A DNA stretch of 49,998 nucleotides from a virus (lineage: Duplodnaviria > Caudoviricetes): positions 1 to 49,998 of IMG/VR virus record IMGVR_UViG_3300032373_000017, one strand, 5' to 3'. Both the position numbers and the translations under genes were made by a program. Of the stretch, positions 1 to 36,292 are shown piece by piece; the first letter of the stretch is position 1, and each line of letters begins with the position of its first letter. Below the pieces are notes generated by a model. It did not search any database. It worked only from the letters and a program-made list of their open reading frames with translations, and was not told the DNA's origin.

Positions 1-579
1 ATTGAGCGTGCCGCTATGTGTTCTAATTTCCACACTACCTTGTTCTGCTAAAGGTAGGAAATTAAACCCTGTATACTTACATCCATGCCTAATAAATCTA
101 TGCATATCTCTAGAGGCAAAGCAAACTCCTGATTGCTTAACTTGCTCAGTGGCATGAGATAGGCCTGGACAATAGATATTGTCATATCTATCCTTCACCC
201 CTACATAATACAAGGCAGGTTCTAGCATAGTGTATATACGATAGAGGGATTCTATCTGCACAACAGTCATATCTCTACAATCAATATGACAATGCAATGA
301 GCATCTATGTGATAGAGATAGATTACTAAATGTAGACAATACTTCACTCAAAGCATCAACACTAACACTCAACTCTTCCCCTCGTAAAGGGGCTTTATGT
401 ACAAACTCTATACCATTATTGCGTAGAGAGTGGTCAGGGATTATGTTCCAAGTATCTAGAAATCTATCAGGTACTCTAGCAAATTCATCCCAACCTTCCA
501 CCTCTAATTCCAATCCCATAAACACTTCTTTATTAGGACTAGGCAGTGGATGACCAAACACCTCACTCACTGTATTCAT
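1..579 (-). CDS. Amidoligase (COOH-NH2 ligase superfamily), N-terminal part; runs off the window start
   Basis: Not in ORF track; translated by hand from ATG 579: MNTVSEVFGH...MGLELEVE...DHSLRNNGIEFV...CSLHCHID...KYTGFN...SVEIRTHSGTLN, the amidoligase motif set. Confidence 0.85.
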   Translation of the reverse strand, partial: MNTVSEVFGHPLPSPNKEVFMGLELEVEGWDEFARVPDRFLDTWNIIPDHSLRNNGIEFVHKAPLRGEELSVSVDALSEVLSTFSNLSLSHRCSLHCHIDCRDMTVVQIESLYRIYTMLEPALYYVGVKDRYDNIYCPGLSHATEQVKQSGVCFASRDMHRFIRHGCKYTGFNFLPLAEQGSVEIRTHSGTLN

Positions 580-1123
580 AACTCCACCCCTCTAAGTCAG
601 GAAGTTTTAGTTTAGTTTTAGGTTTAATTATCTTATCTGTATGACTAACAACTCCACCTACAGGTAGAGTTCTAAACCATAATATGTCACCAACAACAGC
701 AAAGTCTCTGTTTATAACACCCTCTCCAAGCTCTCTATTCGGTGGTAGGAAGTGAGAGGCAATAGCCATACAGAAGATAGAAGGTACACTAACAGGGCGT
801 ATAGAGCCATCCTCTGACAGCTTATACGAGAATAGGGTAGAGTTTCTCAACCCCCTACGCCATTGACGCTGGGCCACTCTAGCTACATAATAGATAGAGT
901 TATCGCTATGTCTAAACATACCTAAATCAGAATTAACTAGACGTAGCCTATTTATACCTACTCTGTATTCCATACCTTCTATATCTATAACCACAGCCTC
1001 ATCTTCACTAGTAAAGTGCTGTATTCTAACAGTGGTTAGTGTGGATAGATTATCACTTTCTAGCAGGCAATAGGTTTCAGCATAGCTGGCATTCCTATCA
1101 TCTACAGTCATCTCCTCAAGCAT
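563..1123 (-). CDS. Hypothetical protein of the peptide-ligase cluster
   Basis: Track ORF 563..1165; ATG 1123 follows GGGGA and overlaps the upstream stop. Confidence 0.75.
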   Translation of the reverse strand: MLEEMTVDDRNASYAETYCLLESDNLSTLTTVRIQHFTSEDEAVVIDIEGMEYRVGINRLRLVNSDLGMFRHSDNSIYYVARVAQRQWRRGLRNSTLFSYKLSEDGSIRPVSVPSIFCMAIASHFLPPNRELGEGVINRDFAVVGDILWFRTLPVGGVVSHTDKIIKPKTKLKLPDLEGWSYEYSE

Positions 1124-1931
1124 ATCCGTCCCCCTTGCTAAGAGCGTTATGAATAATAGTTTCAATAGAAGGCATCAACACTTGTGCCCTTTCTACATCA
1201 CTGTTATTTATAATATCAATAACAGTGGCTTCTTTAGCTAACAAACGAAGCTTTGGTAATAACACTCCATGCTGCTCCACACATAGCTTTGTAACATCAA
1301 ATACATACCGCTGTCGTGCAAAGTTGGAAGTCCAGAAATTACCTAACGTGCGATATTCTCCTCCATATTCTTTTATACGACAACAACCAGCTTTTCCATA
1401 TAAGTTGCGGCGAAACAAATCACGATCAGTGATTACACTCCACAAGCCTAGCGTAGCATCTAAACATTTAACTATATTTGTAGTCTCTTCTAGAGAAGGG
1501 TTTACATAGCTAAAGTGTACATGTCCTGCTGCTGTTCTTAGAACAGTTCTTGCTGAAGGTTTTGGATTCTCCTCTTGTGTGTATACATTGAAATCTGGCA
1601 TACAGCCCATCTCCATGGCCATACCACCCCAACCTAGCAACTGCTCTTTGGTGTAATGATGACTACTCTTAGTCACTGTTACATACCCTTGGGAGGCTAA
1701 CACTGATGATAGCTTGTTTTTAACCACACTAAGCTTGGTTTGCCAAGCATCTACATCATCACAAGGATCTATAGCCATTTCAGCCAACACATTATCCTCT
1801 TGTAGATTGCCATGCTCCACTAGAACAGGGGTGCTTTTACTACCCCCTATTAGTCCGATGGCACTACCAACCTCACCACCTTTAGATACAAAGAACTCTA
1901 CATCACTTCCAATCTGTTTTAAGATAGCCAT
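1116..1931 (-). CDS. phiEco32-like COOH-NH2 ligase type 2
   Basis: IGSDVEFF, GGSK, QEDNVLAE, GCMPDFN, RTAAGHVH, RRNLYGKAG, YGGEYRTLGNFW motifs. Confidence 0.9.
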   Translation of the reverse strand: MAILKQIGSDVEFFVSKGGEVGSAIGLIGGSKSTPVLVEHGNLQEDNVLAEMAIDPCDDVDAWQTKLSVVKNKLSSVLASQGYVTVTKSSHHYTKEQLLGWGGMAMEMGCMPDFNVYTQEENPKPSARTVLRTAAGHVHFSYVNPSLEETTNIVKCLDATLGLWSVITDRDLFRRNLYGKAGCCRIKEYGGEYRTLGNFWTSNFARQRYVFDVTKLCVEQHGVLLPKLRLLAKEATVIDIINNSDVERAQVLMPSIETIIHNALSKGDGYA

Positions 1932-1932
1932 A

Positions 1933-2502
1933 TTAATCCCACTCCATTTCTAATTCATCTGTAGTTGCTCTTGCAACAGGAATATGAGAAGACCTGCTGG
2001 TGCTATCCACTAGCTGATAAGTATAATCTGTTAGGTCTTCAGGAAGAGAGGGGAGGATTGGAACACTCTCTGTATTTTTAGACACTTCAAATACTTTTAT
2101 AGTAAACTCCCCCCCTGTCCACCCAACAGTGTTAACATCATGCACATTTCTACTAGCCATAGCTAATTTATCTGCTAATCCTCCTAATAATTTAGCATCT
2201 CTCCATCGACGCTCTTCATCGCCAAACCAAGCTGCTGGAGCAGATAATATAAACTTCCAACTATACGCCTCTTCACATTTCTTTAGACCATATTGTCTAG
2301 TTAGAACATTAGCTAAACAGCTAAGCATGTTATACAGTTCATCTATATTACCACTGCTGTTCGTGCTCATCTCCCCAACAGCGATAGAAGAACAATCTTG
2401 AGGTAGATTGATGACTTTAGCAGCTAAGTATAACTTCTCTCCATACGAGTTTGTTTTTTGGCTATTAATATATAAAGTGGATTGTGTATTATAGCGAAAC
2501 AT
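1933..2502 (-). CDS. Hypothetical early protein
   Basis: 189-aa ORF with AAGGT RBS, packed in operon. Confidence 0.7.
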   Translation of the reverse strand: MFRYNTQSTLYINSQKTNSYGEKLYLAAKVINLPQDCSSIAVGEMSTNSSGNIDELYNMLSCLANVLTRQYGLKKCEEAYSWKFILSAPAAWFGDEERRWRDAKLLGGLADKLAMASRNVHDVNTVGWTGGEFTIKVFEVSKNTESVPILPSLPEDLTDYTYQLVDSTSRSSHIPVARATTDELEMEWD

Positions 2503-2513
2503 ATTGCATACCT

Positions 2514-2618
2514 TTACAAATGAATTAAATGTTTATGCTTCTCAATAAAAGAAGCGCATTCTTTACGAGTTTTAAAGCGAATAAGTGGAATGGCATTGTA
2601 TGTCACATCCCACCACAT
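2514..2618 (-). CDS. Small hypothetical protein (34 aa)
   Basis: MWWDVTYNAIPLIRFKTRKEC...; fills the gap between flanking genes. Confidence 0.5.
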   Translation of the reverse strand: MWWDVTYNAIPLIRFKTRKECASFIEKHKHLIHL

Positions 2619-2619
2619 T

Positions 2620-3186
2620 TTACTGGGACTTCTGGTTATCTCCATTGTCTGATTCCTTATCTTCAACATGTGCATTAATGTCAGCTACATGAGCATTAAG
2701 CTTCTTCTGTAATCTCCTAACCCCACGAGCTAGGAATAACAACCCAACAGAGGAGAATATAACAGAGAAGACTACAGGGGCCCATATAAGAGCTTCGATG
2801 ATGATACCTAGTATTGTGCTACAGACTACGATTCCTAAAGGTACGCAAAATAACATAAAACCTATGCCTACGTCTAGCTTATACTTTACAGTGTCTAGCT
2901 TATACCATTTATCACACCAGTCTAAATACACCCAGTCCCCAGAAGTCTGTAACCTCTCAGGTAAGTAGCATCTACACTCACTCTGTTCTAAATCTACATT
3001 TCTGCAACACTCAGGTACTACATCTACAGCTTTCTTGTCTTCCACAAAACACCACAACCCCACCCCAATCCAATACAAAAGATAGCAGAGAAGAGCAATG
3101 AGAGATAGTGTGACGCCCACACTACTAAACCCATACACATAATTAACACTAAAAGCACTAGACATCCAATTAAATAATATTTCCAC
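2620..3186 (-). CDS. Predicted membrane protein
   Basis: GTG after AAGGAGG; several hydrophobic segments. Confidence 0.75.
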   Translation of the reverse strand: MEILFNWMSSAFSVNYVYGFSSVGVTLSLIALLCYLLYWIGVGLWCFVEDKKAVDVVPECCRNVDLEQSECRCYLPERLQTSGDWVYLDWCDKWYKLDTVKYKLDVGIGFMLFCVPLGIVVCSTILGIIIEALIWAPVVFSVIFSSVGLLFLARGVRRLQKKLNAHVADINAHVEDKESDNGDNQKSQ

Positions 3187-3320
3187 ACTCTATCCCTCCT
3201 TATGGGCATTAATATCAACCTTGAAATTGCTTAGGGGTTCCATGTTACTTTCCTTCTGGTTCTTGAATATTATTCAGTTGTTGTTTAGCTTCATCAAGTT
3301 GTGATGACAATTATGCATCT

Positions 3321-3464
3321 CTAAGCTCCCTTCAATAAATTGTTAGCTGTATTGTACACACTAGACCAATACGTACGGCGCTTAGTTCCCTGCATATACT
3401 TGTTGCATTGAATAGCAGCATGCATACGAATTGTTTCATTAAGCTTTCTGTTTTGTTCAGTCAT
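3321..3464 (-). CDS. Small hypothetical protein (47 aa)
   Basis: MTEQNRKLNETIRMH...; TAATG overlap with upstream gene, GGAG RBS. Confidence 0.6.
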   Translation of the reverse strand: MTEQNRKLNETIRMHAAIQCNKYMQGTKRRTYWSSVYNTANNLLKGA

Positions 3465-3673
3465 TACAGATTCTCCAGTTTGTACGCATCAATCCTACGC
3501 TGTACTCGCTTGTTAGTTAAAGCTACATGTTCCGTTTGTAGCTGTTCAACACTCTTCAAAGCACCATGTTCAATGCCATATACTTTATCTAAAGCATTGT
3601 CTAAAGTGTAGATGAATACACCACCAACTCCAAGACATAGCAGAATAGCCCTGATACCTTGTTTCATACTCAC
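3464..3673 (-). CDS. Small protein with N-terminal membrane anchor
   Basis: GTG after AGGAG; hydrophobic N-terminus. Confidence 0.65.
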   Translation of the reverse strand: MSMKQGIRAILLCLGVGGVFIYTLDNALDKVYGIEHGALKSVEQLQTEHVALTNKRVQRRIDAYKLENL

Positions 3674-3687
3674 TCTCTCCTATTAGC

Positions 3688-4203
3688 CTAGCTATAGGCT
3701 ACTTTAGATTTATTATTAATCTCAGTTACAACACCAGCAACTAAAGCCATAGCCTTAGCCCCCTCTTCACTTAAAGGGTGCTCTTTGTTGTGTCTCTTTA
3801 GTGTAGACAATACAGTTGCAAGATAGCGCCCTTCATTCCACACACTAGCTTCTTTATCCTCTTTCTCAAAGAATGGACTAGCTTCGGCTTCCATAACTAT
3901 CTTAATCTTCTCAAAGCTATGAATCTGAGGCATTTTACCTTTATAGCCACCCTTCCCGCCGTGACTATTTGCATCCCACTTCACGGTTTTCAAGTGTTTT
4001 GTAATCCAAAACTTCAGAGCATTACCACGTGCAGATCGAGGCATTGCATGGACTAATTCACTGATTAAAGTTGTGTCCCCACACTGTAAAAAATGGGCTA
4101 CACCAGCCACACCGACAGCGTGGATACGTTCATCTAATTTCTTTCCAGCTTCGCTGATTAGCTTGATTTTCTTCATACCGTCTTTAATTGATAATACGTT
4201 CAT
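3688..4203 (-). CDS. Conserved podovirus early protein
   Basis: ATG 4203 after GGAGA; H..QCGDTT...MPRSARGNALKFW pattern recalled from podovirus early genes. Confidence 0.75.
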   Translation of the reverse strand: MNVLSIKDGMKKIKLISEAGKKLDERIHAVGVAGVAHFLQCGDTTLISELVHAMPRSARGNALKFWITKHLKTVKWDANSHGGKGGYKGKMPQIHSFEKIKIVMEAEASPFFEKEDKEASVWNEGRYLATVLSTLKRHNKEHPLSEEGAKAMALVAGVVTEINNKSKVAYS

Positions 4204-4224
4204 GACATTCTCCAATATAATTAA

Positions 4225-4275
4225 ATAGCTTAATACATAAGCACTCTATTAAATGAATGCGTATGTCTAAACCAA
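4225..4275 (-). promoter_or_regulatory. Long imperfect hairpin, candidate RNase III processing site
   Basis: UGGUUUA-G-ACAUA-C-GCAUUC / GAGUGC-U-UAUGU-AU-UAAGCUA stem just upstream of an early RBS. Confidence 0.5.
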
Positions 4276-4367
4276 CTAACTAAGCATGACTAGACACCAA
4301 CACACAAAGTGTGATAGCAGCTTGATTATACCTAGTTAATATAGAATAGAGATTGTATTGTTTGTTT

Positions 4368-4625
4368 AATGTTAGCGCACTAGCGCCAGTGATTACCCTC
4401 TAAGTGACATTATAGAGAGAAGCTTGCCCAATCGTACCGGCTAAGCTTTTCAGTTTGTATGCCCCGTTACAATGCCTTACATGTATACACCGTGAAGCGT
4501 AGACAATAGACAATGTAAGTTACAAACCTACACCAGCTTATTAGACGAAACTGGTACGTCACTACTAGCCCTTAGTAGTCAAGTGAGGTGTTTAACGCCA
4601 CTCTCCACGCTTTCTTTAACATCTT
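4368..4625 (-). ncRNA. Candidate structured leader or ncRNA (multi-stem)
   Basis: At least five hairpins plus a 5'/3' closing helix downstream of a consensus promoter; no long ORF. Confidence 0.5.
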
Positions 4626-4639
4626 ATCTATACCCCCAT

Positions 4640-4667
4640 ATTATAGGGGTATAATTTAAGAAGTCAA
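4640..4667 (-). promoter_or_regulatory. Sigma70 early promoter with palindrome over the -10
   Basis: TTGACT-16-TATAAT; inverted repeat TATACCCC...GGGGTATA at 4629-4653. Confidence 0.75.
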
Positions 4668-4671
4668 GCAA

Positions 4672-4842
4672 TTAAAACATATTTCTTTCGTATTCTTCAA
4701 ACATATCACCATAGGCAACATCTAGACCTATGTCCCAACAAATAGAGCGGTCTACAATATCACCAAACATATCGGACATATGCTCTGGCGTATAGAACAA
4801 TGTAACATTTAAATCTCCATCAAATCCAATATCTTCAAACAT
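4672..4842 (-). CDS. Very acidic 56-aa protein, first gene of the early arm
   Basis: MFEDIGFDGD...DMFEEYERNMF; 14 D/E versus 2 R; own promoter upstream. Confidence 0.6.
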   Translation of the reverse strand: MFEDIGFDGDLNVTLFYTPEHMSDMFGDIVDRSICWDIGLDVAYGDMFEEYERNMF

Positions 4843-4893
4843 ACTAATGATGTCCCAAAAAATGCAAAGCTGTATGCTTTGTCGATGGGATTA

Positions 4894-4921
4894 ATACTAC
4901 TATATTCAAGAAATAATGCAA
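4894..4921 (-). promoter_or_regulatory. Sigma70 early promoter
   Basis: TTGCAT-16-TAGTAT. Confidence 0.5.
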
Positions 4922-5025
4922 AGAACACTTTGTTATATTAAATTGAATGCTTATAACCTGGCTCTTATGATACCTTATATAATAGTAGTCTGATCTTGAC
5001 TAGCACATTAGAGCGTAGCGAACAA

Positions 5026-5041
5026 CTGTTATTATATACAG
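5026..5041. promoter_or_regulatory. LexA (SOS) box
   Basis: CTGT-TATTATAT-ACAG matches CTGT-N8-ACAG. Confidence 0.65.
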
Positions 5042-5052
5042 TGTTATATATA

Positions 5053-5068
5053 AGCAAATAGTGTGCCA
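5053..5068 (-). promoter_or_regulatory. Sigma54 (RpoN) -24/-12 site
   Basis: TGGCAC-ACTAT-TTGCT on the - strand. Confidence 0.55.
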
Positions 5069-5153
5069 TTCAACGATCTAATTGAAGGAATAGGAAGGGT
5101 AGAGTAAACAGTTAACAGCCCGTACAGGGCACTACAGAGCGTCTCAGCACTAC

Positions 5154-5169
5154 CTGTATATATAGACAG
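5154..5169. promoter_or_regulatory. LexA (SOS) box
   Basis: CTGT-ATATATAG-ACAG, one mismatch from CTGTATATATATACAG. Confidence 0.75.
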
Positions 5170-5225
5170 CACTTATGTTGCACATTACTTATTATTAACT
5201 TGCGTATAACTACTTGTTTAAACTA

Positions 5226-5348
5226 GCGAAACTATTGATTGCGAAACTAAATGTTAATGCGAATGAGTTTGATTTGTATTATAACTACAATTAATAGTTG
5301 CGAATGATAATATAAATACAAATGATAATAGTTATTAGTTGCGAATGT
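5226..5348 (+). repeat. Five GCGAA-core direct repeats
   Basis: GCGAAACTA at 5226 and 5241; GCGAATG at 5259, 5300, 5341. Confidence 0.6.
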
Positions 5349-5406
5349 TAATGATTATTATATGCAGGTGTAAATGATAATTGTTATCGTGTGAGAATTA
5401 TTCTTA
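5303..5406. promoter_or_regulatory. Array of Fur-box-like sites
   Basis: 7-1-7 TGATAAT-N-ATTATCA matches at 5323 (12/14), 5352 (10/14), 5375 (12/14), 5392 (11/14); half site at 5305. Confidence 0.6.
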
Positions 5407-5710
5407 ATAGGGGGTAGCTGTAGAAAGTATTAACAGAGGGGGTAGAGGGGGGAGTGGGTTGCGTGAGTGTAGTGCATTTAACCTTAAAAAATTCTCACAG
5501 AAATTACAGCTTTCAGCGAGTACAATTGTAATTGTTATACAGATGGGGGAGTATGTATATATATAATTCCCACATCCTAGCATAGCGTGTTAATTGTGCT
5601 TAAGCACCTTTCTCCCCTAAGGGGGATGGATAGAGTTAGACACGCTAGGCTTATCCCACCCATCGCAATAGCGAATATGTAAAGAGTTTTGTAAAGAATT
5701 GTAATTTTAC

Positions 5711-5739
5711 TTGTTTTTTAAAAAAAAGTATGCTATACT
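5711..5739 (+). promoter_or_regulatory. Promoter for the packaging/structural arm
   Basis: TTGTTT-17-TATACT with extended -10 TG. Confidence 0.65.
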
Positions 5740-5764
5740 AGTTACATAACAACAACAATACTAC

Positions 5765-5982
5765 TGTTACCCTAGTAACAACTAACTAGTTATACTCCTT
5801 AGGGAAACTATATTTAATATTCCTTTAAGGGAATATTAAATTATTATAGTTATAATAAACACTTTACTTCGTAAAGACAAATACAATAAGAATCCCTTAA
5901 GGATTCTTTATTAATAAATATACAATCTAATACTAAATACTCTGCATTTAGTATTATAGAATAATCACCTTATGGTGATTAT
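5765..5982. repeat. Array of about nine AT-rich inverted repeats
   Basis: e.g. ATTTAATATTCC/GGAATATTAAAT, TAATACTAAAT/ATTTAGTATTA, ATAATCACC/GGTGATTAT. Confidence 0.8.
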
Positions 5983-6033
5983 GTATATTAACACTTACAA
6001 GCATATGCAAGACATATGCATAAAGGAACGATA

Positions 6034-6555
6034 GTGACTAAGCTTGTAGAAAGAGAAAGAGATAAATTCCGTGGTTATGGCAATAAGCCACTCACGGAAG
6101 CTTTATTTATAGAAACCTGCACAGATAAAGAAACTGCCTTGTACACCTTGTCTGTTCAAGACAGACGTGTACATGATGTATTCTACCCTTCCCTGCATAA
6201 GAGATATGTTGAATTAGCTGATGTTGCAGAGCATAACTTTGCAACATTATATTTTGAAGGGTATACACATTGGCTTAAGATAAAAAGCTTAAAGTTCTTC
6301 GAACCATTCTATGCTGCAATGGTTGAAGAGTTGAATGCTAAGCTTCGTGGAGAAGCTATTAACTTGATGCTAGAGCAGATGCGAGACGGCTCTGCAAACC
6401 AAAGCACTCTCAAATATCTTGCAGACAATGACTACATCCCTAAAGCTACCAGAGGTAGGCCAAAGAAGGATGAGTTGGCTAAGGAGATTAAGAAACAAGC
6501 AACAGCTAATCTAGCTATTGTAAAAGACTTAGAGAGAATTAAACATAATGGCTAA
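6034..6555 (+). CDS. terS: Terminase small subunit (putative)
   Basis: Directly precedes and overlaps terL; GTG 6034 after AAAGGA; C-terminal RGRPKK. Confidence 0.75.
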   Translation: MTKLVERERDKFRGYGNKPLTEALFIETCTDKETALYTLSVQDRRVHDVFYPSLHKRYVELADVAEHNFATLYFEGYTHWLKIKSLKFFEPFYAAMVEELNAKLRGEAINLMLEQMRDGSANQSTLKYLADNDYIPKATRGRPKKDELAKEIKKQATANLAIVKDLERIKHNG

Positions 6556-8083
6556 CACACACCTAGACGAGATTAGACAATTAGCTGAAGATGACTTATA
6601 CACCTTTGCACGTCTAATACATCCAGAGCGTGAATATGGTGAGATTCATAAGAAAGTTTTCCGGTGGCTTCAAGACTGTGAAACACCTAATGCTTTATTG
6701 CTGCTCCCTAGAGCACATATGAAGAGCCATTGTATAGAAGTGTGGTGTTGTTGGTGGATTACTAAGCATCCAGATACATCTATACTATACATGTCTGCAA
6801 CCACTACGTTAGCAGAAGCTCAGCTATATGCTATTAAGAACACTCTCACCAGTCCAATCTATGCAAGATATTGGCCTGAGATGATTAACCCAGAAGAGGG
6901 TAAGAGAGAGAAGTGGACTACTGGAGCTATATCTGTAGACCACCCAAAGCGTAAAGCGGAAGGTGTGCGAGACTTCACTGTATTTGCAGCTGGCATAACA
7001 ACTAACACCACTGGGCTTCATGCAGAGGTTGTAGTGGGAGATGATGTCGTTGTACCAGATAATGCTTACACAGAAGATGGACGCACTAAGTGTGCTAATG
7101 CTATGTCTCAAGCAGCGTCTATTTTGAATACTGGCGGTATATTTAGAGCTTGTGGTACACGCTACCACCCAGCAGATCAATATGCCACTTGGAAAGATCA
7201 AGAGATGCCGGTGTTTGATGATGATGGTGGAGTTATCGGTCAAGAGAAGATTTGGGACATCCTTGAAGAAGTGGTGGAAGTTGATGGCACATTCTTGTGG
7301 CCACGCACAGCACGATCTGATGGGAAGTTGTTTGGCTTTGATAGTAGTGAGTTGGCTAGGATTAGTGCTATGTATTCAGATAGGGTACAATTTTATGCAC
7401 AATATTATAATGATCCCAACGACCCTGAGAGTCAGAGATTTGACATCTCTAGATTTCAGTATTATGATAAGAAACACTTAAAGTATAGCCAAGGTAAGTG
7501 GTGGTTTCAGAATGAGAAGCTCAACATATTTGCTGGTATTGACTTTGCCTTCTCTTTAAGTAAGAAGGCAGATTATTCTGCTATTGTAGTTGCTGGGATA
7601 GATGCAGCTAACAATGTATATGTATTAGATATTGATCGGTTTAAGACCGATAAGATTGCAGAGTATTATGATAAGATTGATAGAATGCATCAGAAGTGGA
7701 GTTTTAGACGACTTCGTGCAGAAGTGACTGTAGCGCAAGCTGTTATTGTCCGAGATCTTAAAGATAGGTTTAGGCAGAATGGAAGCTTAATTAGCATCGA
7801 CGAACATAGACCTACTCGACACCAAGGATCTAAGGAAGAGAGAATAGCAGCTGCGCTGGAGCCACGATACGAGAATCAACAGATATGGCACTATAAAGGT
7901 GGCTATATACCAGTGTTAGAAGAAGAGTTAATTATGGCACGCCCTCCACATGATGATGTGAAGGATTGCTTAGCATCTGTAGTTGAGATAATAAAAGCAC
8001 CTAAAGACGTTGGTAGGAATATAGCTGACGTTACGGATAATAATATTTACCACGGACGCTTCGGTGGCATAGCGTTCCGCTAG
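6548..8083 (+). CDS. terL: Terminase large subunit
   Basis: PRAHMKS Walker A variant, VVGDD Walker B, GTRY, GIDFA and HDDVKD nuclease motifs. Confidence 0.93.
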   Translation: MANTHLDEIRQLAEDDLYTFARLIHPEREYGEIHKKVFRWLQDCETPNALLLLPRAHMKSHCIEVWCCWWITKHPDTSILYMSATTTLAEAQLYAIKNTLTSPIYARYWPEMINPEEGKREKWTTGAISVDHPKRKAEGVRDFTVFAAGITTNTTGLHAEVVVGDDVVVPDNAYTEDGRTKCANAMSQAASILNTGGIFRACGTRYHPADQYATWKDQEMPVFDDDGGVIGQEKIWDILEEVVEVDGTFLWPRTARSDGKLFGFDSSELARISAMYSDRVQFYAQYYNDPNDPESQRFDISRFQYYDKKHLKYSQGKWWFQNEKLNIFAGIDFAFSLSKKADYSAIVVAGIDAANNVYVLDIDRFKTDKIAEYYDKIDRMHQKWSFRRLRAEVTVAQAVIVRDLKDRFRQNGSLISIDEHRPTRHQGSKEERIAAALEPRYENQQIWHYKGGYIPVLEEELIMARPPHDDVKDCLASVVEIIKAPKDVGRNIADVTDNNIYHGRFGGIAFR

Positions 8084-14267: not shown

Positions 14268-16220
14268 ATGTCTACATTTCTAGATAATGTAGGGTATAAA
14301 GGAACCAAAGTAAGTAAGTTTGTTTACACTGTAGGTTCTCCCGAAGCAGGATTTAATGCCGCTCCTGATGGAGTGGTATCTGATTTCTATATACGCGATG
14401 ATTCTAATAATCAAGCAGCTGTTAGAGGTAGTAGAACTTCTACTACTTTTACTATTACAGAATATTACAGCGATAGTTTCCCTGTATTTGATTCTACAGT
14501 GGATATATTTTCATCTGTACCTGCAAAGAAGTTAAATGAGAATATACAAGGAGTAGCTGGACTATTATTTATAGGTCAGTCTCAAAACGCTGGTCATAAT
14601 ACAGGCAGAGATATAGCTAATGCTGACTACCCTAGTACAGACGTATATGAGTTTGTGCCTTCTGATGTAGGTTTTATGCGTGTAGCTGAAGTAGCACCTT
14701 TAGATCATCTATCAGGTTCTACTGGCTTAGCTATAACTTCTGCACTTAGTTATGGTAAGGCGTTAAAGCGCCAAGGTGTTAACCAAAGTGCTATTATTGC
14801 ACGGGCTCAAGGAAGTACGAGCTTCTCTGGAGGTCATTGGGTTCAGGGTGGGGCTAATTATGCGCTAGCACTAACTCGTACTCTAGAGTTCTTGGATGAG
14901 CACGACTCTCATTATCTACATACAATATCAATGGCTATAGGTGAGTCTGATGCGCAAGCAAGTGTAACAGCTCCAACTTTTGCTGGCTACTTATCTCAAT
15001 TTGCTTCTGATTTTAGAGCAGATGTTAAGTTAGGTGGTCATGATATAGATAATGTACCTTTAATCTTTCTTGGAATGAATAGTGAATTCCAAGCCTTTGG
15101 TACAGGAGTTGCGTTAGAAGCAGAGTTAGCTGATGCTCCAAACCAAATACCTTATTGTGGTTATTGTGAAACAGCTAGTTACGCTGTAGCTGACAATCCT
15201 CCTACGAATAATCATCATAATGATGACACACAAAGAACTATAGGTTGGGAGAAGTTATTTCCTAGTAGATTACAGGCTATGGCCAATAATGCTGCTTCAG
15301 ATACAACCATTACAGTTCCCGCAGGTAGTGTAACTCTTACAGGGTATGCACCTGTAGTTAGTATAGGTGGTAATATAGAAGTTACAGTTCCAACAGGAAG
15401 TGTGACACTAACTGGTTATGTTCCTACTGTAACTAATACAGCAGATACAACTATCGTTGTTCCTTCTGGAACTATAACTCTTACAGGGCAAGTGCCGGAT
15501 GTATCTGTAACTAACAACGTGTCTGTAGAAGTGCCTTCTGGAGCTGTATCCTTAACAGGACAAGTCCCAACAGTATCTGTTGTACCCGTAGCAGCAGCTA
15601 AGTTCTTACTACAGAAAGGTGTAGGTGTAACTACATCAGCTGGCCCTGGTACACTATTCCAACAATGGGATAACCAAGAAGGTACTGATAATCTTTATAA
15701 CTTAACTGGAAACTCCCTTAATACTCCAGATGAAAGTAGTGGTTCGGCTGACTTCTTCACCTTTGATTTAATGAATGCTGATGAGATTCACACATTACTC
15801 TCAGATGCTGATGGCTACACTTTAATAGTGGATGTAACCTTTGACGCAACAGGGTCAGGGACATTCTTTAGAGGTACAGAGAATAGTATCAATCAGGATG
15901 GTAGTGTGGTTGCACAAAATGCTGCTAACACTGGTAGCTTTGGAACGCCTACTACTGGAATCAGAACTACCTTAGCCGTATCTATAGATCATACGTTAGG
16001 AACTCCTACACTTAAGTTGTACAAAGATGAAGTGGAAGTGGATTCTGATACTACCTTATCTGCTGCGCAAACTGAGAGTTCTTCAGCAGGAGCTGTAGGG
16101 TTTGGTCAGGGAGGTGGTTCTGGAGGTAACTTCACACTACATAATGTATATCTCGAAGCTGGGGCTGGTAAGTCTTTAGCTGAGATTAGTACAATCATAT
16201 CCACTGAGTTTATAACATAA
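14268..16220 (+). CDS. Virion-associated SGNH (sialate O-acetylesterase-like) protein with repeats and C-terminal lectin/LamG-like region
   Basis: GQSQNAG, AQGSTS, GESDA and NNHH motifs; four VPxGxxTLTG repeats. Confidence 0.7.
   Translation: MSTFLDNVGYKGTKVSKFVYTVGSPEAGFNAAPDGVVSDFYIRDDSNNQAAVRGSRTSTTFTITEYYSDSFPVFDSTVDIFSSVPAKKLNENIQGVAGLLFIGQSQNAGHNTGRDIANADYPSTDVYEFVPSDVGFMRVAEVAPLDHLSGSTGLAITSALSYGKALKRQGVNQSAIIARAQGSTSFSGGHWVQGGANYALALTRTLEFLDEHDSHYLHTISMAIGESDAQASVTAPTFAGYLSQFASDFRADVKLGGHDIDNVPLIFLGMNSEFQAFGTGVALEAELADAPNQIPYCGYCETASYAVADNPPTNNHHNDDTQRTIGWEKLFPSRLQAMANNAASDTTITVPAGSVTLTGYAPVVSIGGNIEVTVPTGSVTLTGYVPTVTNTADTTIVVPSGTITLTGQVPDVSVTNNVSVEVPSGAVSLTGQVPTVSVVPVAAAKFLLQKGVGVTTSAGPGTLFQQWDNQEGTDNLYNLTGNSLNTPDESSGSADFFTFDLMNADEIHTLLSDADGYTLIVDVTFDATGSGTFFRGTENSINQDGSVVAQNAANTGSFGTPTTGIRTTLAVSIDHTLGTPTLKLYKDEVEVDSDTTLSAAQTESSSAGAVGFGQGGGSGGNFTLHNVYLEAGAGKSLAEISTIISTEFIT
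15307..15580 (+). repeat. Four ~23-24-aa repeats, (I/V)xVPxG(S/T/A)(V/I)(T/S)LTGxxPxV
   Basis: Visible in the translation; two more copies in the next gene (~16292-16415). Confidence 0.8.
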
Positions 16221-17007: not shown

Positions 17008-18480
17008 ATGGCTTGTAATATGACGCCGATAAATAAGGATTTGTCTTTGTGGACACCTGCGGCGGATGGTAAGATAAGAGGCTTTGATAAGGGTGGTACA
17101 ACACCTTTAGACGTAAGAGCCTTTCCAGGTGCTGAGGGCTTAGCAGCACTAACTAGAGGAGCTGCCGGACATGTTGGTGCTAAGACTGTTGCTTTTGTTG
17201 ACAACACTAATGATTCTGGAGTAGGTAGCTTAAGAGCAGCAGTGGAAGGTGCAGGTAATGAAGGTACTTTTATTATCTTTAGAGTTAATGGCAATATTAA
17301 CTTATCTTCTGTATTAGAGACAACTTCAGATAATCTTACATTTGCCTTTCAGACATCACCTAGCGGAGTTGCTGTCGTTGGAGCACCTTTAAGACTACAA
17401 GATAATTCAGATGTTATTATTCGACATGGCCGCTTCCGTTGCGGATCACATCAACCTATTAGCGAGACAGACCAAGAATCCTTATCTATCTGGAATGCTA
17501 ATAATGTAATGATTGCTAATACCTCTGCTACATGGGGTGCAGATGAGACTATTGGCTGTACTAGTTTTCCTGCTACAAGATTCACTAATATTACATTCTT
17601 TGATTGTCTTATAGGTGAAGGTTTAACTGATCCAGCACCAGAAGCTAATCATGGGTATGGTATTCTATTAAACGCTACGTATGATACGGGCAATACAGCA
17701 GACTTTATACGTCCATTCTTTACTTCTAGTAATGGTCGTTTACCTCAGTGGAGTGGTGATATAACATCTACCATAGTTAATGGAGTTGTATATAACTTTG
17801 ATGGTAGTCACTCCAGCATGTTAGATATGCAAGGCGCTCCCGGCCCTAAAGTTAACTCTTTAAGCTGTATGACTAAAGCAGGTATAGACTCTAATGGCTC
17901 TGTTAGATATGGAGCTGGCGGAACTGCTGGTGAATATATTGCATTAGGTACAGGGGCTCAAGAGGTTGTAGCTATTACTCCTTATGCAGCCCTCTACCAG
18001 AGGAGAGCTTTCGGTACGGATAGACTCTTAGATGCTGATTCAGAATGGTCTATAGTTAATGGTTTCTCTGGAGCTTATTTACCTACTACTTTCGAATCAC
18101 TTACACCTTTCTCTCTACCAGGAGGTATTACTCCTACTGAGATTGTTGTATCAGAATCAAATTATGAGTCTGTACGTGACCAAGTTGTTGCTGGTGTGGG
18201 TGCGACAGTACCTATAAGAGACTCGGCTGATACAGAGATTGTAAATAACTACACTAATAGTACAGGTAGTTTGAAAGCAGATGTCACCTACCCTGATGAC
18301 TTTCCCACATATGGCTCAGCTAGCTATCCTACTGATACAGACGGTGACGGTATTCCAGATAGCTATTGGACGTATCGTGGTATATCTGCTCAGACTTGGA
18401 GCGATACAGCGCCTAGTGGCTATCTATGGATAGAAGAGTTTATTAATGACCTAGCAGACGGGAACTACAGTTATGCCTGA
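17008..18480 (+). CDS. Pectate lyase-like (PL1-type) beta-helix protein
   Basis: AFPGAEG, DSGVGSLRAA, WGADE, RLP and DTDGDGIPD motifs of bacterial PL1 lyases. Confidence 0.8.
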   Translation: MACNMTPINKDLSLWTPAADGKIRGFDKGGTTPLDVRAFPGAEGLAALTRGAAGHVGAKTVAFVDNTNDSGVGSLRAAVEGAGNEGTFIIFRVNGNINLSSVLETTSDNLTFAFQTSPSGVAVVGAPLRLQDNSDVIIRHGRFRCGSHQPISETDQESLSIWNANNVMIANTSATWGADETIGCTSFPATRFTNITFFDCLIGEGLTDPAPEANHGYGILLNATYDTGNTADFIRPFFTSSNGRLPQWSGDITSTIVNGVVYNFDGSHSSMLDMQGAPGPKVNSLSCMTKAGIDSNGSVRYGAGGTAGEYIALGTGAQEVVAITPYAALYQRRAFGTDRLLDADSEWSIVNGFSGAYLPTTFESLTPFSLPGGITPTEIVVSESNYESVRDQVVAGVGATVPIRDSADTEIVNNYTNSTGSLKADVTYPDDFPTYGSASYPTDTDGDGIPDSYWTYRGISAQTWSDTAPSGYLWIEEFINDLADGNYSYA

Positions 18481-30030: not shown

Positions 30031-31806
30031 ATGGCTAAAACTACAGCTTCATTGCAAGCACCAGACACTAGATTTTCTAGACCCACCTCCCCTGTACAAG
30101 ACACTAGTGTAGCCAGCGCCATAACAGGTGCTGGTAAGGCTATAGCCACAGGGGTGGAGTTGAAGCAGAGCTTTGATAAACAAGCTGCTGCTGACGCACA
30201 GCTAGGTAGGGAGAGTGCTTTACGTACAGAGCTTACAGAGTTTTCTGATGATGTTATAACAGCAGCTGCTCAGAAGTCATTAGATGGCTTCCAGAGGGAT
30301 GTTAATAAGTTTGCAAATCTATCAGAGACAGAAACTAAGATTAGGACAGAGGCTATATTGCGTAAGCATGTAGCTTCCGACCCTGCTAATGCTCAGAAAT
30401 ATCGTACTATAGCTGGTAGTGTGTTAGGGTTTGATCCTACTGGAGAAACTCTAGCTGCTGTATTCTCACAGCAAGAAGCTACAGCTAATGTTAATGCACA
30501 ACTTAAGAAGCAATATCTAGCTCTTGGTGGGGATATAAACACTTGGGGTACACCACAATCAACGGAATGGTTTAGGCGGAACAGTGCTTTTAATGCCAAA
30601 CTGAAAGAACAGACACGAGAGTTAGAGTTTGCTAAACAAACAAATCAACTATCTGGACTAAGCGCTCATAAGGAGCTTAGGACATGGAGTAAGAATAGTT
30701 CTGGTTCAGCTAATGCTAATGCCTTAGGTATGGTGCAAGGAGTTTTTAATAAACCTTTAACACAGATAACAGATAAGGATATAGCAACAGTAGAGCCTGA
30801 AGTTCTGCAATCTCTAATACAAGATATTACAGAGCAGAAATTTTCTACTAGACAGCAAGCTACAGAGAGATTTTTAGGCTTTGGAGATATTAGTAATACA
30901 GATATTGAGGATGCTGTACAAACAACTACAGATCAGCTAGACTTTATACTAAATCGCTTATCTCTAAATAATACGCAGCAAGAAGCTGCTAATAGAATTA
31001 AACTTAACAATTCTATTACAGAAGCAGGTTTGTGGCAAGATGAGAAGACTAAACCCTTCTTAACAATGCAGACATTCTTTCCAGATGTACCTCTTCCTAT
31101 AGAAGCTAATTCTGTTTTATTTGATGCAATTTCACCAGTGTTAAACGGTAAGATTGTAGATGGAATTATAGCAGAAGAACAGGAAGCTAGAAAGAAAGGT
31201 GTTACATTCTATAAGGCTATAATCAAAGGTATAGGGGAGACTGGTGTTTTAGATGATGCGCAAAGGGAGAATGCTGCTAAGTTTTTTAGAGGATTGAGTA
31301 GGAGCAGTGTAGCCACAGCTAATGACATGAGTCAATCTCAAAAAGATGGTTTGATGGAAGTGCTACAAGTTCCACAACTTGCTACGATGTTACAGCAGAT
31401 TCCAGAAAGTGCTGGAGATGCACAGAACTTAAGCTTTATAGCACAAGACTATACATTTAAAACACTGCTAGCTGCATCAGCAGACTTACGTAGGCAATTC
31501 CGTCTACCAGCTCAATTTAGAACTTTAGGTAAACAAGAGACTAATAAAGTAAGTAATCTTGTAACACTAACAACTACGCCTAAGGGTTTTAAGATTGTAC
31601 CAAAGAATAGAACAGAAGGGGCTAGACTCACAGCTTCTCTCTTTAATGAGAGGTATATAACAAGACTTAATAAGTCTATAAGAGCTACAGCTAACCTTGA
31701 TGGAGAGAGTGTAGAGAGTACAATGCAAGCATTGCTTAATAGTGAAGAGTTTACAGAGATGGAAGATATAACAGCACTTATGCCAGTGGCAGGGGATGAA
31801 GAATAA
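30031..31806 (+). CDS. Internal virion (ejection) protein
   Basis: 591 aa, helical, A/Q-rich. Confidence 0.7.
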   Translation: MAKTTASLQAPDTRFSRPTSPVQDTSVASAITGAGKAIATGVELKQSFDKQAAADAQLGRESALRTELTEFSDDVITAAAQKSLDGFQRDVNKFANLSETETKIRTEAILRKHVASDPANAQKYRTIAGSVLGFDPTGETLAAVFSQQEATANVNAQLKKQYLALGGDINTWGTPQSTEWFRRNSAFNAKLKEQTRELEFAKQTNQLSGLSAHKELRTWSKNSSGSANANALGMVQGVFNKPLTQITDKDIATVEPEVLQSLIQDITEQKFSTRQQATERFLGFGDISNTDIEDAVQTTTDQLDFILNRLSLNNTQQEAANRIKLNNSITEAGLWQDEKTKPFLTMQTFFPDVPLPIEANSVLFDAISPVLNGKIVDGIIAEEQEARKKGVTFYKAIIKGIGETGVLDDAQRENAAKFFRGLSRSSVATANDMSQSQKDGLMEVLQVPQLATMLQQIPESAGDAQNLSFIAQDYTFKTLLAASADLRRQFRLPAQFRTLGKQETNKVSNLVTLTTTPKGFKIVPKNRTEGARLTASLFNERYITRLNKSIRATANLDGESVESTMQALLNSEEFTEMEDITALMPVAGDEE

Positions 31807-33971
31807 TGGCTAAAATTGTATTAGATAATATAGCCACCGGCTTTGGTGGTACTGTTAAAACTAACAGTAATAATGATAAGGTTGAGGCAGAGTTTCAAGA
31901 TAAAGTTTTATACAGAGACAACCCTGTAGGTGAACCTAATCAGATGATGCAAGAGTTGGATATGAATTCCAATCGCATTATAAACTTGGCTGATGGAGTG
32001 CAGGCTAGTGATGCAGCTACTTTTGCACAACTTAACGCTGCCATCTCTGCTAACAGCACAGGTCTTATAGCTTCTCAAATAGAGACTCAGTATGGTGCGG
32101 CTGCTGTAGCAAACGTATTCACATTCGCAGGGATAGTATACCTCCCCGGTGCTAATAACCTAGAAGTGTACAGGAACGGTTTAAGGTTAGGTAAGACTAT
32201 AGATTACTCAGAGACTTCTGCTAGTTCTATAACTCTGACATTTACTCCTAATGCCACAGACAGGTTTGACTTCCGTACTAACACAGCTACCTCCACTAAT
32301 ACTGGGAGTACTGATGCTATTATTCATGCAGAGTATGGAGTTGTATCAAATAACTTAGCTAAGTACATCCAGAACAGGCATGTAGTTAATGTTAAGGACG
32401 AGCCCTTCGGTGCTCTAGGTGATGGTGTGACTGATGATACAGCAGCTATTCAGCTAGCTCTGAATACTGGACTAGATATTATTATACCTTCTGGAACTTA
32501 CTTAGTATCTACTACATTAAACTTCTCAGCTGAAGGTCAGTCTTTGATAGGACAAGGATCACCCACCCTTAAGTCTAATGGCTTAGTAGTTGCAAATCCT
32601 AATGGTGGAGATCCCGTCCCCATCCTACAGTCTGTTAACCTCAGTGATATAGAAGTTGCTGGTATTACTTTCGATTGTAATGCAGAGACTCTTGGAGGTT
32701 TTAGAGCTACACTTAACAGCCCAACAGCTGATCATAAGAACATAAAGGTTCATGATTGTTCTTTCCTTAATACATTGGAGGTCTTCGACGCTGCTACAGG
32801 TCTCATACCTACTGGCAATTCTTTTGTAGGGGCGATTACAGTAGATAACAGGCAAGGTGCCTCTTTCACTTATAAGATTAAAGGGGTCTCTCTATATAAT
32901 AATACCTTTGACAATAAACCTATTGGGGGAGGTTCATCGCATGGATGTGTAGTTACTTATGCGGAGGATGTCTCATTCGTAGACAACACTGTACTAAGCG
33001 GTGGCTTTCATGGGATGGAAGCAGTCGAATGTATTGATGTTGTAATAAGTAGGAATCATGTGGAAGACTGTTTCCAATCTGCTCTAGGTGTTGGGACTTT
33101 TGTTAAGAACTTCACCATCTCAGATAATGTATGCAGAAATTGTAGCGGTGATGGTGTTATTACTGTAGAGCATAATTCTATAAATGGAGTTGTGTCAGGC
33201 AACTTAATAGAGGACGCTATCAACCAAGGCATTAATGTATCTTATGGAACTGGTGGAGCTTCTCCATTCAATGAAGTTAATAATATTATAGTAGCTTCGA
33301 ATGTGATTAAGGCTCTGTCTACTGCTGAAGGTAAGATTGGTATTAATGCTTACTCTAGTACAGGCGGCAATATAGGCACAGGATTATCTCTTAAGGACAA
33401 TGTACTAGACGGGTTTGCTACAGGCATTGAATGCTCATGGTTAGACTTCGGACAAGTAACTGGTAATACAGTTAGACGCTTTGGTTTGGTCAGTGTCGGC
33501 AGACCTAATAAGACTTTCATACAGCTCACTGGTTGCGACAAGATTGTTGTAGATGGCAATATCTGTGAACAAGAAGTGACTGAACATGCTATTGTTATAG
33601 ATACCTCTTTAGTCTCAAACTCAAGAATCAATGTTGTTAACAACATTATACAATCAGCTACTGCGGGAGCGCTTGTACGTAAGATAGGTTCTGGGGAATT
33701 TAAGGTTGCTGGTAATACTACCTTCGGGGCTATTAACTATGTTAGCTGTGACGGAACTCAGAGTATACGTATGGCAATCAATGATGGCCCACTGTCAGGG
33801 CAGCCTCTGGTAGGCGGCACTCTTAAGGGGTATGTAGAAGGTACAGGAACTCCTGAAGGCGTTGTTGCGGCATTTGTAGGCTCTACATACGGCAGACTTG
33901 ATGGAGGTGCAGCAACTTCTTTCTATGTCAAAGAGGTTGGTTCTGGGGACACAGGTTGGGTAGCTAAGTAG
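31806..33971 (+). CDS. Tailspike/tail fibre with beta-helix depolymerase domain
   Basis: N-terminal anchor (LDMNSNRIINL), FGALGDGVTDDTAAIQ, parallel beta-helix repeats. Confidence 0.88.
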   Translation: MAKIVLDNIATGFGGTVKTNSNNDKVEAEFQDKVLYRDNPVGEPNQMMQELDMNSNRIINLADGVQASDAATFAQLNAAISANSTGLIASQIETQYGAAAVANVFTFAGIVYLPGANNLEVYRNGLRLGKTIDYSETSASSITLTFTPNATDRFDFRTNTATSTNTGSTDAIIHAEYGVVSNNLAKYIQNRHVVNVKDEPFGALGDGVTDDTAAIQLALNTGLDIIIPSGTYLVSTTLNFSAEGQSLIGQGSPTLKSNGLVVANPNGGDPVPILQSVNLSDIEVAGITFDCNAETLGGFRATLNSPTADHKNIKVHDCSFLNTLEVFDAATGLIPTGNSFVGAITVDNRQGASFTYKIKGVSLYNNTFDNKPIGGGSSHGCVVTYAEDVSFVDNTVLSGGFHGMEAVECIDVVISRNHVEDCFQSALGVGTFVKNFTISDNVCRNCSGDGVITVEHNSINGVVSGNLIEDAINQGINVSYGTGGASPFNEVNNIIVASNVIKALSTAEGKIGINAYSSTGGNIGTGLSLKDNVLDGFATGIECSWLDFGQVTGNTVRRFGLVSVGRPNKTFIQLTGCDKIVVDGNICEQEVTEHAIVIDTSLVSNSRINVVNNIIQSATAGALVRKIGSGEFKVAGNTTFGAINYVSCDGTQSIRMAINDGPLSGQPLVGGTLKGYVEGTGTPEGVVAAFVGSTYGRLDGGAATSFYVKEVGSGDTGWVAK

Positions 33972-33979
33972 GAGGTTGT

Positions 33980-34066
33980 ATGGCCAAGATAAAGATAAAC
34001 ACTAAACAGCTATTCTTAGAACGGCTAGAGATTAAACATTGTGAATATAAGGGATTAAGTATATGA
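33980..34066 (+). CDS. 28-aa ORF, possible gene remnant
   Basis: Strong GGAGG RBS; ATGA overlap with the next tailspike. Confidence 0.4.
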   Translation: MAKIKINTKQLFLERLEIKHCEYKGLSI

Positions 34067-35844: not shown

Positions 35845-35874
35845 AAAGGGGCCTTAGAGCCCCTTTTCTATTTT
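35845..35874. terminator. Bidirectional terminator between convergent arms
   Basis: AAAGGGGC-CTTAGA-GCCCCTTT flanked by A and T tracts. Confidence 0.8.
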
Positions 35875-36292
35875 AGAAAACAGCGTAAGAGTTGGTTCGC
35901 CATTGATCGGCTAACTCATGCGCCCTCCCTCCAACTTGATGCGCCCATTTAGAGTCCATCATCTCATAACAAACCTGATCAACATCATAATCTTCTATAG
36001 CCTTTATCATACGTTTGAATTTCTTAAATCCTTCCAACCCTAGATTAAATACCATATTAGTTATGACATCTCTACGTACGTCTGGAAGACGTCTATACCA
36101 ATCAAACTCTGTCAATAGCTTTAGTTGTATCTGACTAACTTGGGCTACAAGGATTGCTTCTGCAACCCTTTCATCTATACCACTCTCAAGATTACAGCCA
36201 TAGCCTATCGTAAGAACCCCTTCGGAGCACTCGTAAGGGTGTGATCGAAACCCCTCATGACGCTTTAATTGCTCATGTACACTCATTGTCAT
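35873..36292 (-). CDS. Endolysin, T4-like lysozyme (GH24)
   Basis: HEG...Y.CSEG..TIGYG, NMVFNLG, SKWAHQVGGRA. Confidence 0.9.
   Translation of the reverse strand: MTMSVHEQLKRHEGFRSHPYECSEGVLTIGYGCNLESGIDERVAEAILVAQVSQIQLKLLTEFDWYRRLPDVRRDVITNMVFNLGLEGFKKFKRMIKAIEDYDVDQVCYEMMDSKWAHQVGGRAHELADQWRTNSYAVF

Follow-up and report, generated by a model that had tools for sequence, protein, structure and literature searches.

What are sites resembling those of several host global regulators doing in a short control region of a phage in which no integrase or repressor is recognised? The stretch concerned, positions 5026–5406 of IMG/VR virus record IMGVR_UViG_3300032373_000017, lies within the complete, circularly permuted genome of an ICP2-like marine podophage of the Zobellviridae, all 49,998 nt of which were analysed and are here called the window. 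The initial annotation described about 380 bp of non-coding DNA containing LexA boxes, a sigma54 site, GCGAA repeats, and Fur-like boxes, and offered several explanations for them, one being a sensor that ties early transcription to the state of the host. It is this explanation that is favoured here, with moderate confidence: the stretch would hold leftward promoters that are conditional on RpoN, LexA, and Fur and make part of early transcription depend on the physiology of the host.

All of the listed motifs are present when the window is scanned on both strands. The non-coding DNA extends well beyond the 380 bp described, the list of open reading frames (ORFs) giving a divergent gap of 1.8 kb, about five times the flagged span, of which the flagged DNA is the centre (Table 1). 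The enrichment over composition-matched background on which the initial annotation depended is also seen, each motif being rarer by expectation than found in 20,000 first-order Markov simulations of the 1800 nt gap. Two patterns were fixed in advance, the palindrome CTGT-N8-ACAG (expected 0.0255, observed 2, P=4e-4) and the sigma-54 two-block pattern (expected 0.00185, observed 1, P=0.0019), while TGCGAA (expected 0.21, observed 4, P<5e-5) and the 9-mer AATGATAAT (expected 0.038, observed 3, P=5e-5) were picked post hoc.

The case for a sensor begins with the sigma-54-type element, which is on the minus strand, a detail not given in the initial annotation, faces the early arm, has GG at -24 and GC at -12 at the exact spacing, and is the only perfect two-block match on either strand of the 49,998 bp. 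With this site as the template, GG and GC being required and up to one mismatch allowed in the direction facing the early arm, 12 gaps were searched: those of the window, PQ867843, PQ867844, and Vibrio phage ICP2, and those of eight related loci denoted L030, L043, L045, L047, L070, L072, L074, and L075, among which L072/L075 and L045/L043 are close variant pairs. Copies are present in half of the gaps (window, PQ867844, L045, L072, L074, and L075) and absent at this threshold from those of ICP2, PQ867843, L030, L043, L047, and L070. Nine such matches occur in the 195 kb that four whole genomes comprise, from which about 0.3 would be expected leftward in the approximately 14 kb of gaps.

In PQ867844, L072, L074, and L075, which represent three lineages, the inverted repeat (T)GTTAC-N5-GTAAC(A) has its centre 96–98 nt upstream of the -24 block, and further copies are found close by. 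This distance is the standard textbook position (about 80–150 nt away) for an enhancer-binding activator of sigma-54, and the repeats look like such an enhancer. The corresponding slot in the window is occupied by the second of the SOS-box palindromes, and L045 has a half-palindrome at +85 to +100 that aligns with it. A sigma-54 element that faces the early arm and is conserved in relatives with enhancer-like geometry favours the sensor proposal.

Short words around the element recur as well. A 12-mer spanning the -24 block is common to PQ867844 and L045, and the upstream word TTATGTTGCA(C) has a relative, ATGTTGCAGTGC, common to the same two; the TTATGTTGCA region in the window also forms a 2-mismatch sigma-54-like match on the plus strand (5167–5182). 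Downstream of the element, a 56 aa ORF begins after about 200 nt in the window, and in L045 an ORF with a ribosome-binding site begins after about 105 nt. Separately, 400–900 nt of GC-rich, ORF-free DNA lies downstream of the sigma-54-like elements in the PQ867844 gap (L038), L072, L074, and L075, and Rfam finds nothing in four related loci that include L072 and L074. A structured small RNA is not supported for the predicted 185 nt transcript from the sigma-54 start to the hairpin in the window, the folding being no better than that of shuffles (z -0.71); Rfam gives nothing credible in the window gap (best E 0.57).

CTGT-N8-ACAG occurs three times in the window, the two gap copies having A/T spacers and the third lying inside a gene at 31852. 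By eye, palindrome 2 is one base off the ideal SOS box, and palindrome 1 holds TATAAT on the minus strand (5036 to 5031). Both palindromes are within a direct repeat of about 40 nt, and so they have a common origin and do not represent independent events. It had been stated that most of the sites overlap no clear promoter. This is not the case for palindrome 1, which is over the predicted sigma-54 start, nor for the Fur-like hexamers, which are over the leftward match TTAACA-18-TATCAT, and these overlaps further support the proposed sensor.

The GCGAA repeats and the Fur-like boxes, which were listed as separate features, are one phased hexamer array. Seven copies of TGCGAA are found in the window, four of them at 5240, 5258, 5299, and 5340, with AGCGAA at 5225, and all three genome copies of AATGATAAT lie within 5303–5381. 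Between 5299 and 5388 the hexamers are in register in groups of six, three, and three, each group being headed by GCGAAT or GTAAAT. AAT recurs at 6 nt steps, with 12/23 pair distances being multiples of 6 (P=0.001), and a 13 nt palindromic core (up to two mismatches) has four of its six genome matches inside 5321–5385.

The leftward promoter match beneath this array has a counterpart in ICP2. Its -35 word and its distance from the conserved core of the gap, which consists of a G-rich block and a 21 nt element, agree with those of the first early promoter annotated by the ICP2 authors, and the 11-mer GAATGTTAATG is common to both phages at a near-equal distance from the core (-150 versus -153). 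The 13 nt palindromic core itself is present in 5/12 gaps, counting the window, being exact in L045 and PQ867843 and differing at no more than one position in L072 and L075; the gaps of ICP2, PQ867844, L070, L043, L047, and L030 do not have it. Four related gaps contain stronger Fur-like copies than does the window, the 19 bp Fur consensus being matched at 17/19 in PQ867843 (10651–10669) and, by eye, at 17/19 in L045. The gaps are otherwise unalignable, with GTTGCGAATGAT common to the window and L045 and CGAATGATTATCATT common to PQ867843 and L045, and the positions of the Fur-like cassettes vary widely among the relatives. Where the window has a palindrome directly left of the G-rich block, L045 and L043 have GCGAAG-C-ATTCTC.

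From the observed motifs, statistics, relative positions, and recurrence, the following protein binding may be predicted. Transcription from the first promoter would begin at approximately 5042, 12 nt after the GC block, and would require the RpoN holoenzyme and an enhancer-binding protein of the host. LexA at +2 to +17 and in the enhancer slot would block this promoter until the SOS response or phage-induced DNA breakdown, and the second promoter (5351 to 5322) would be repressed by Fur that is loaded with iron and sits on the phased hexamers. Both promoters would read leftward through a leader of about 175 nt, with a weak hairpin terminator (4881–4865), into the 56 aa ORF, and their output would add to that of a strong, apparently unregulated promoter (4667 to 4640) that is closest to the early genes. 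A further palindrome, CCCCTATAATATGGGG (4634–4651, minus-strand reading), is centred on the -10 of this TTGACT-16-TATAAT match and may be an operator for the shut-off of early transcription. Over 4671–4814, a contig of metagenome run X3 has 22 differing letters and 2 gaps relative to the window.

Several observations weigh against conditional promoters. The P values given above are per pattern, and many regulators were available to the earlier reader; the LexA, Fur, and RpoN specificities, assumed from kinship to Vibrio phages, may not be those of the host. Sigma-70-like matches are not enriched in the gap (10 found versus 10.2 expected in shuffles), and the second promoter match has an 18 nt spacer and a score of 10/12. 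The best match to the Fur consensus, 15/19 at 5370–5388, is equalled at three sites inside genes, so that single Fur-like boxes are not significant, although their cluster and phasing are. By reading, the Fur-like cassettes of L045 and L072 have no good promoter match over them, an unusual arrangement for Fur operators. The SOS-box palindrome is found in 0/11 other gaps and is therefore specific to the window phage, L045 keeping only half of palindrome 2, which might in any case be an enhancer site for another activator instead of a LexA site. The closest relative with a complete gap, L070, has flanking words in common with the window, yet it has neither palindrome, no GCGAA/Fur-like array, and only a 2-mismatch sigma-54-like site, so that these modules are dispensable for the family.

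Some of these points would also suit the suggestion that the matches have no regulatory function and arose by chance in AT-rich, internally duplicated DNA. The region is rich in AT, a single duplicated module accounts for both palindromes, the choice of TGCGAA and the 9-mer was made post hoc, the earlier reader may have tried many regulators, and there is no excess of sigma-70 matches. This explanation is nevertheless very unlikely, given the P values of the two patterns that were fixed in advance and the recurrence, in the unalignable gaps of relatives, of a sigma-54 unit at fixed geometry and of a Fur-like cassette.

Two divergent arms separated by a gap of 1.5–1.8 kb are likewise found in PQ867844, PQ867843, and ICP2, and within these gaps it is the G-rich block, with three to four G runs, and the 21 nt element AAAAAATTCTCACAGAAATTA that are the best-conserved non-coding sequence of the family, 11 lineages being alignable here. 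This core is carried by the window, L038, L039, L040, L004, L030, L041, L043, L045–L047, L070, L072, L074, and L075, and could be a shared upstream site of divergent promoters, a former of a G-quadruplex or R-loop, or part of an origin. Another role considered for the 21 nt element was that of a plain UP element serving a rightward promoter. In L045 it adjoins a perfect TTGACA-17-TATAAT and in L030 it is approximately 33 nt from the -35, and the idea was dropped because there is no fixed distance between element and promoter.

A scan with the core pattern gave one IMG/VR contig and 21 metagenome stretches, of which one is the window, one duplicates the IMG/VR contig, four are true relatives (L043, L045, L046, and L047), and 15 have no G-rich block. 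Alignment of homologues of the first early gene gave eight more loci, with the core carried by L069/L070, L072, L074, and L075, and the kinship of the loci is backed by protein matches on both flanks. With a 91 nt query at E<=10, ICP2 and PQ867843 were the only true relatives matched, and scans of IMG/VR with single proteins (TerS, the first early protein, and the COOH-NH2 ligase) gave no relatives; these were recovered via a TerL scan and the alignment of the early protein. Megablast and blastn of 4200–6100 against GenBank phages gave no match, Tandem Repeats Finder reported nothing within 5026–5406, and a literature search on Fur boxes of lytic phages and on LexA boxes of virulent ones found no paper on such a region in the library searched.

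To the left of the core, the flagged span included, the DNA is an unalignable mosaic, and even the close pair L045/L043 diverges abruptly there. The two relatives closest by TerL, L004 and L005 (79%), end inside the gap and therefore give little information on the flagged span. In PQ867843 (L039 9869–9923) there are two perfect DnaA boxes within a 21 nt direct repeat, at a spacing of 34 nt. The SOS palindromes seen in the window only, the lack of modules in L070, and these DnaA boxes together indicate that modules have been gained and lost by lineage. It may tentatively be suggested that the DNA left of the G-rich block acts in ICP2-like virulent podophages as a socket in which host-regulator modules are swapped and differ between lineages. 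In the same tentative sense, the modules would be sigma-54 enhancer–promoter units, Fur boxes, LexA boxes in the window phage, and DnaA boxes in PQ867843. Each phage would then gate early transcription, and perhaps the start of replication, on the physiology of its own host, and the sites, made more numerous as the phage DNA replicates, could also pull Fur and LexA away from the chromosome of the host.

The DnaA boxes of PQ867843, which account for 2/3 of those in that genome, bear also on the main rival to conditional promoters, in which the array at 5224–5400 is a replication origin composed of GCGAA-type iterons for a phage initiator, an AT-rich unwinding element, and a G-rich clamp or R-loop former, with the host-factor look-alikes being accessory or coincidental. 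This is considered unlikely, although a number of features would suit it. There are five or six repeats on the same strand, with a spacing of 41 nt among the copies at 5258, 5299, and 5340; 5200–5400 has the lowest GC of the gap (23–27%) and a strong G>C skew; and direct repeats are found left of the G-rich block in PQ867844 (3), L045/L043 (3–4), ICP2 (2 copies), and L030 (3 copies). The cumulative GC skew turns near 5000, but this coincides with the switch of coding strand and so proves nothing. The window gap has no DnaA box at up to one mismatch, the array, with its 6 nt phasing and its palindromic cores, has the look of dimer operators and not of asymmetric iterons, and L070 has no array at all.

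Nor was an initiator recognised by PHROGs or Pfam. The first sizeable early gene (3688–4215, minus strand; phrog_1448) is kept beside the gap in the window, L043, L030, and L069–L076, and its product has 17 homologues besides the window's own in the protein collection. As a DNA binder this protein has no lead, with no Pfam family, no named homologue, and matches in the fold atlas at chance level only. The repeats were considered in addition as a TerS (pac) site, which was rejected, TerS adjoining the gap in the window, L004, and L046 only, with other genes intervening in other relatives.

The initial annotation placed the stretch probably at or near the genome terminus and suggested that the DNA itself may be the effector, either as a landing pad on the entering genome end or as a multi-copy decoy for Fur and LexA. 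A terminus here is not supported for this genome. A 31,450 nt contig of metagenome run X1, the probable source, spans 3642–7500 unbroken. A minus-strand ORF exits in frame at base 1 and another enters in frame at base 49,998; both ends are thus in frame within one amidoligase-type gene, indicating a circular or permuted assembly whose ends are not physical. Contigs of three runs compared with the window have no break and no ends there, this comparison being of contigs only, which cannot show termini. Five related contigs (L004, L005, L043, L045, and L046) do have an end close to the core, at most about 115 nt from the G-rich block or the 21 nt element. This hints only at a point where assembly breaks, and could reflect strain-level mosaicism on the left side, poor coverage of the G runs, or a real terminus in those phages.

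An effector role for the DNA is highly improbable. Those contig ends would suit it, as would the fact that, by reading, several of the best Fur-like cassettes of the family overlap no promoter match, and the copy number of the sites would presumably rise with replication. However, the gap of the window genome has no sign of a terminus, LexA-type sites number only two and Fur-type units about three per genome, most relatives do not have the sites, and the geometry fits ordinary promoter control.

The palindromes and arrays may instead be operators that mimic LexA and Fur sites, are bound by regulators encoded by the phage, and serve an early-to-late switch, a proposal regarded as doubtful. One candidate regulator is a 93 aa protein encoded at 44436–44717 (minus strand), between the helicase and DNA polymerase genes, a slot in which PQ867843 has an annotated sigma factor; it has a weak match to a Sigma70_r4-like helix-turn-helix (E 0.0013), under the Pfam cut-off. 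That the GCGAA-type core and the palindrome by the G-rich block recur in phages probably of different hosts would favour such regulators, and the half-sites GCGAAT, GAGAAT, and GCGAAG depart from the classical Fur hexamer. On the other hand, the 17/19 Fur matches in L045 and PQ867843 and a palindrome 2 that is one base off the ideal SOS box are close matches to two unrelated host consensus sites, which makes mimicry alone hard to maintain. In a non-systematic look, the modules are also absent from close relatives that keep the gene slot of the 93 aa protein. Promoters conditional on the host proteins themselves remain the favoured explanation.

Table 1. Features of the divergent gap of the window (coordinates are those of the window; scores are matches to consensus).
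Feature	Position	Strand	Remark
Entire non-coding gap, with the early/replication arm leaving leftward and the structural arm rightward	4216..6015		From the ORF list
Strongest sigma-70 consensus match of the gap, TTGACT-16-TATAAT	4640..4667	- (leftward)	11/12; promoter scan
56 aa acidic ORF	4672..4842	-	The early arm's first reading frame; matches no family
Terminator-like hairpin and T run	4865..4881	-	About 175 nt downstream of the predicted sigma-54 start
Direct repeat of ~40 nt, copy 1, GCAC-N4-GAGCGT ... palindrome	5003..5041	+	Repeat search (D16, I15) and reading
SOS-box palindrome 1, CTGT-N8-ACAG	5026..5041		Covers +2..+17 of the predicted sigma-54 start
Sigma-54-type -24/-12 element, TGGCAC-N5-TTGCT	5053..5068	-	Faces the early arm; predicted start near 5042
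Direct repeat of ~40 nt, copy 2	5129..5169	+	Repeat search and reading
SOS-box palindrome 2, CTGT-N8-ACAG	5154..5169		Centred 94 nt upstream of the -24 block
Word TTATGTTGCA(C)	5173..5183		Upstream of the sigma-54 element
GCGAA copies 1–3 (AGCGAA 5225, TGCGAA 5240, TGCGAA 5258)	5225..5263	+	Direct orientation
Hexamer array A: T + GCGAAT GATAAT ATAAAT ACAAAT GATAAT AGTTAT	5299..5335	+	Register and 6 nt phasing
Leftward sigma-70-like promoter match, TTAACA-18-TATCAT	5322..5351	-	10/12; arrays A and B lie over it
Hexamer array B: T + GCGAAT GTTAAT GATTAT	5340..5358	+	Overlaps the -35 of the match at 5322..5351
Hexamer array C: GTAAAT GATAAT T GTTATC	5370..5388	+	Best Fur-consensus match of the gap, 15/19
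Palindrome GAGAAT-T-ATTCTT	5393..5405		Adjoins the G-rich block on its left
G-rich block, runs of 5, 5, 6, and 3 G	5411..5459	+	Kept in all 11 aligned lineages
Conserved 21 nt element AAAAAATTCTCACAGAAATTA, imperfect 7-3-7 palindrome	5486..5506	+	About 25 nt past the G-rich block

CheckV rates the 49,998 bp record as a complete virus genome, and its DNA is present in a microbial-mat metagenome run. The TerL protein has 63–67% identity to those of Vibrio phage ICP2, VP41s3, and oyster-derived Zobellviridae. The rightward structural arm (6016–35802; PHROGs, 44 proteins) contains a TerS-like gene, TerL, portal, capsid, and tail proteins, a 1693 aa internal virion protein, and tail spikes. The leftward arm (35873–49998, continuing through 1–4215) contains endolysin, ribonucleotide reductase, thymidylate synthase, DNA polymerase, helicase, primase, a cluster of amidoligase and glutamine amidotransferase genes, and small unknown genes. 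The description of the phage as having no integrase or recognisable repressor agrees with the results of PHROGs (44 proteins) and Pfam (28), in which no RNA polymerase or sigma-54 activator was recognised either; a tRNA scan found none.

Some further features of this genome are recorded here. Four candidate receptor-binding or depolymerase proteins (14268–16220, 17008–18480, 31806–33971, and 34063–35802), among which are a SASA-type acetylesterase, two pectate-lyase-like proteins, and a tail-spike, suggest a phage that targets capsule or polysaccharide. Genes for amidoligase, COOH-NH2 ligase, ATP-grasp, glutamine amidotransferase, and gamma-glutamyl cyclotransferase proteins form a cluster (1–1931 and 47405–49998) that is common to the window and PQ867843. 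Downstream of the core, in the leader of the structural arm, there are short hairpins with CTTAAG, CCTAAGG, or CTTAAAG as their loops or centres in the window (5570–6000), L004 (330–700), L045, and L030, and the 12-mer TCTCTTAAGAGA is common to L045 and L004. The only two genome copies of TATGTATA (5552–5559 and 5980–5987) are both on the plus strand and both in the gap, the second about 30 nt ahead of the TerS-like gene, with inconsistent positions in the relatives; the word resembles that of promoters used by the phiEco32 sigma factor.

The usual view of virulent phages is that their programme begins unconditionally, at strong sigma-70 promoters. If the favoured reading is correct, this would be a phage family with an enhancer-dependent sigma-54 promoter, some members of which may add iron (Fur) and DNA damage (LexA) as inputs, and lytic infection would be tuned to host physiology without lysogeny. 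This would be relevant to phage–host dynamics in iron-poor marine and mat habitats and to predicting when ICP2-like vibrio phages kill efficiently. The G-rich block and the 21 nt element also provide a handle for finding and aligning such control regions in metagenomes.

Parallels to parts of this arrangement can be found in known systems. For the origin alternative, the order of host-factor boxes, iterons, AT-rich DNA, and GC-rich DNA appears to resemble that of plasmid RK2 oriV, in which direct repeats are followed by an AT-rich stretch and then by a GC-rich segment, with the DnaA boxes here seen in one relative; unlike oriV, the window has no recognised initiator gene and its repeats are phased hexamers with dyad cores. 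Among the hexamer-array promoters repressed by Fur are that of aerobactin and, in Shiga-toxin prophages, the iron-regulated stx1 promoter. These have phased F-F-x-R hexamers over the promoter -35 and -10, to which the present array is similar, although here the hexamers are degenerate, headed by GCGAAT, and in the early control region of a virulent phage.

Promoters controlled by LexA are present in CTXphi and coliphage 186. A LexA-controlled promoter is also described for the temperate phage GIL01 (PMC4551915). All three link phage transcription to the SOS response through host LexA boxes on a phage promoter, as the putative boxes here would do, but these phages are temperate or filamentous and use LexA in the lysogeny switch, whereas in the window phage no integrase or repressor was found and the boxes flank a sigma-54-type element.

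The nearest comparison by descent is ICP2, for which the original description gives two transcriptional units and promoters called by sigma-70 consensus only (PMC3037004). Its gap has three tandem sigma-70 promoters facing the early genes (GenBank HQ641345 annotation; Seed 2011, PMC3037004). ICP2 shares with the window phage its family, the two-arm layout, the long gap, and the 11-mer and position of the first promoter, which correspond to those of the window promoter at 5351 to 5322, but its gap has no sigma-54 match (up to one mismatch), SOS-box match, or Fur-core match. Use of sigma-70 as well as sigma-54 promoters is reported for YuA, a virulent phage of Pseudomonas (Ceyssens 2008, as cited in bioRxiv 10.1101/2023.10.13.562163). 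YuA is like the window phage in being virulent, in having no RNA polymerase of its own, and in combining host sigma-54 and sigma-70 promoters, which in the window phage are predicted, although it is a Pseudomonas siphovirus and unrelated. What would set the window phage apart from YuA is that the predicted element is in a divergent gap and overlaid with SOS-box palindromes, with an inverted repeat at a fixed distance from it in the relatives.

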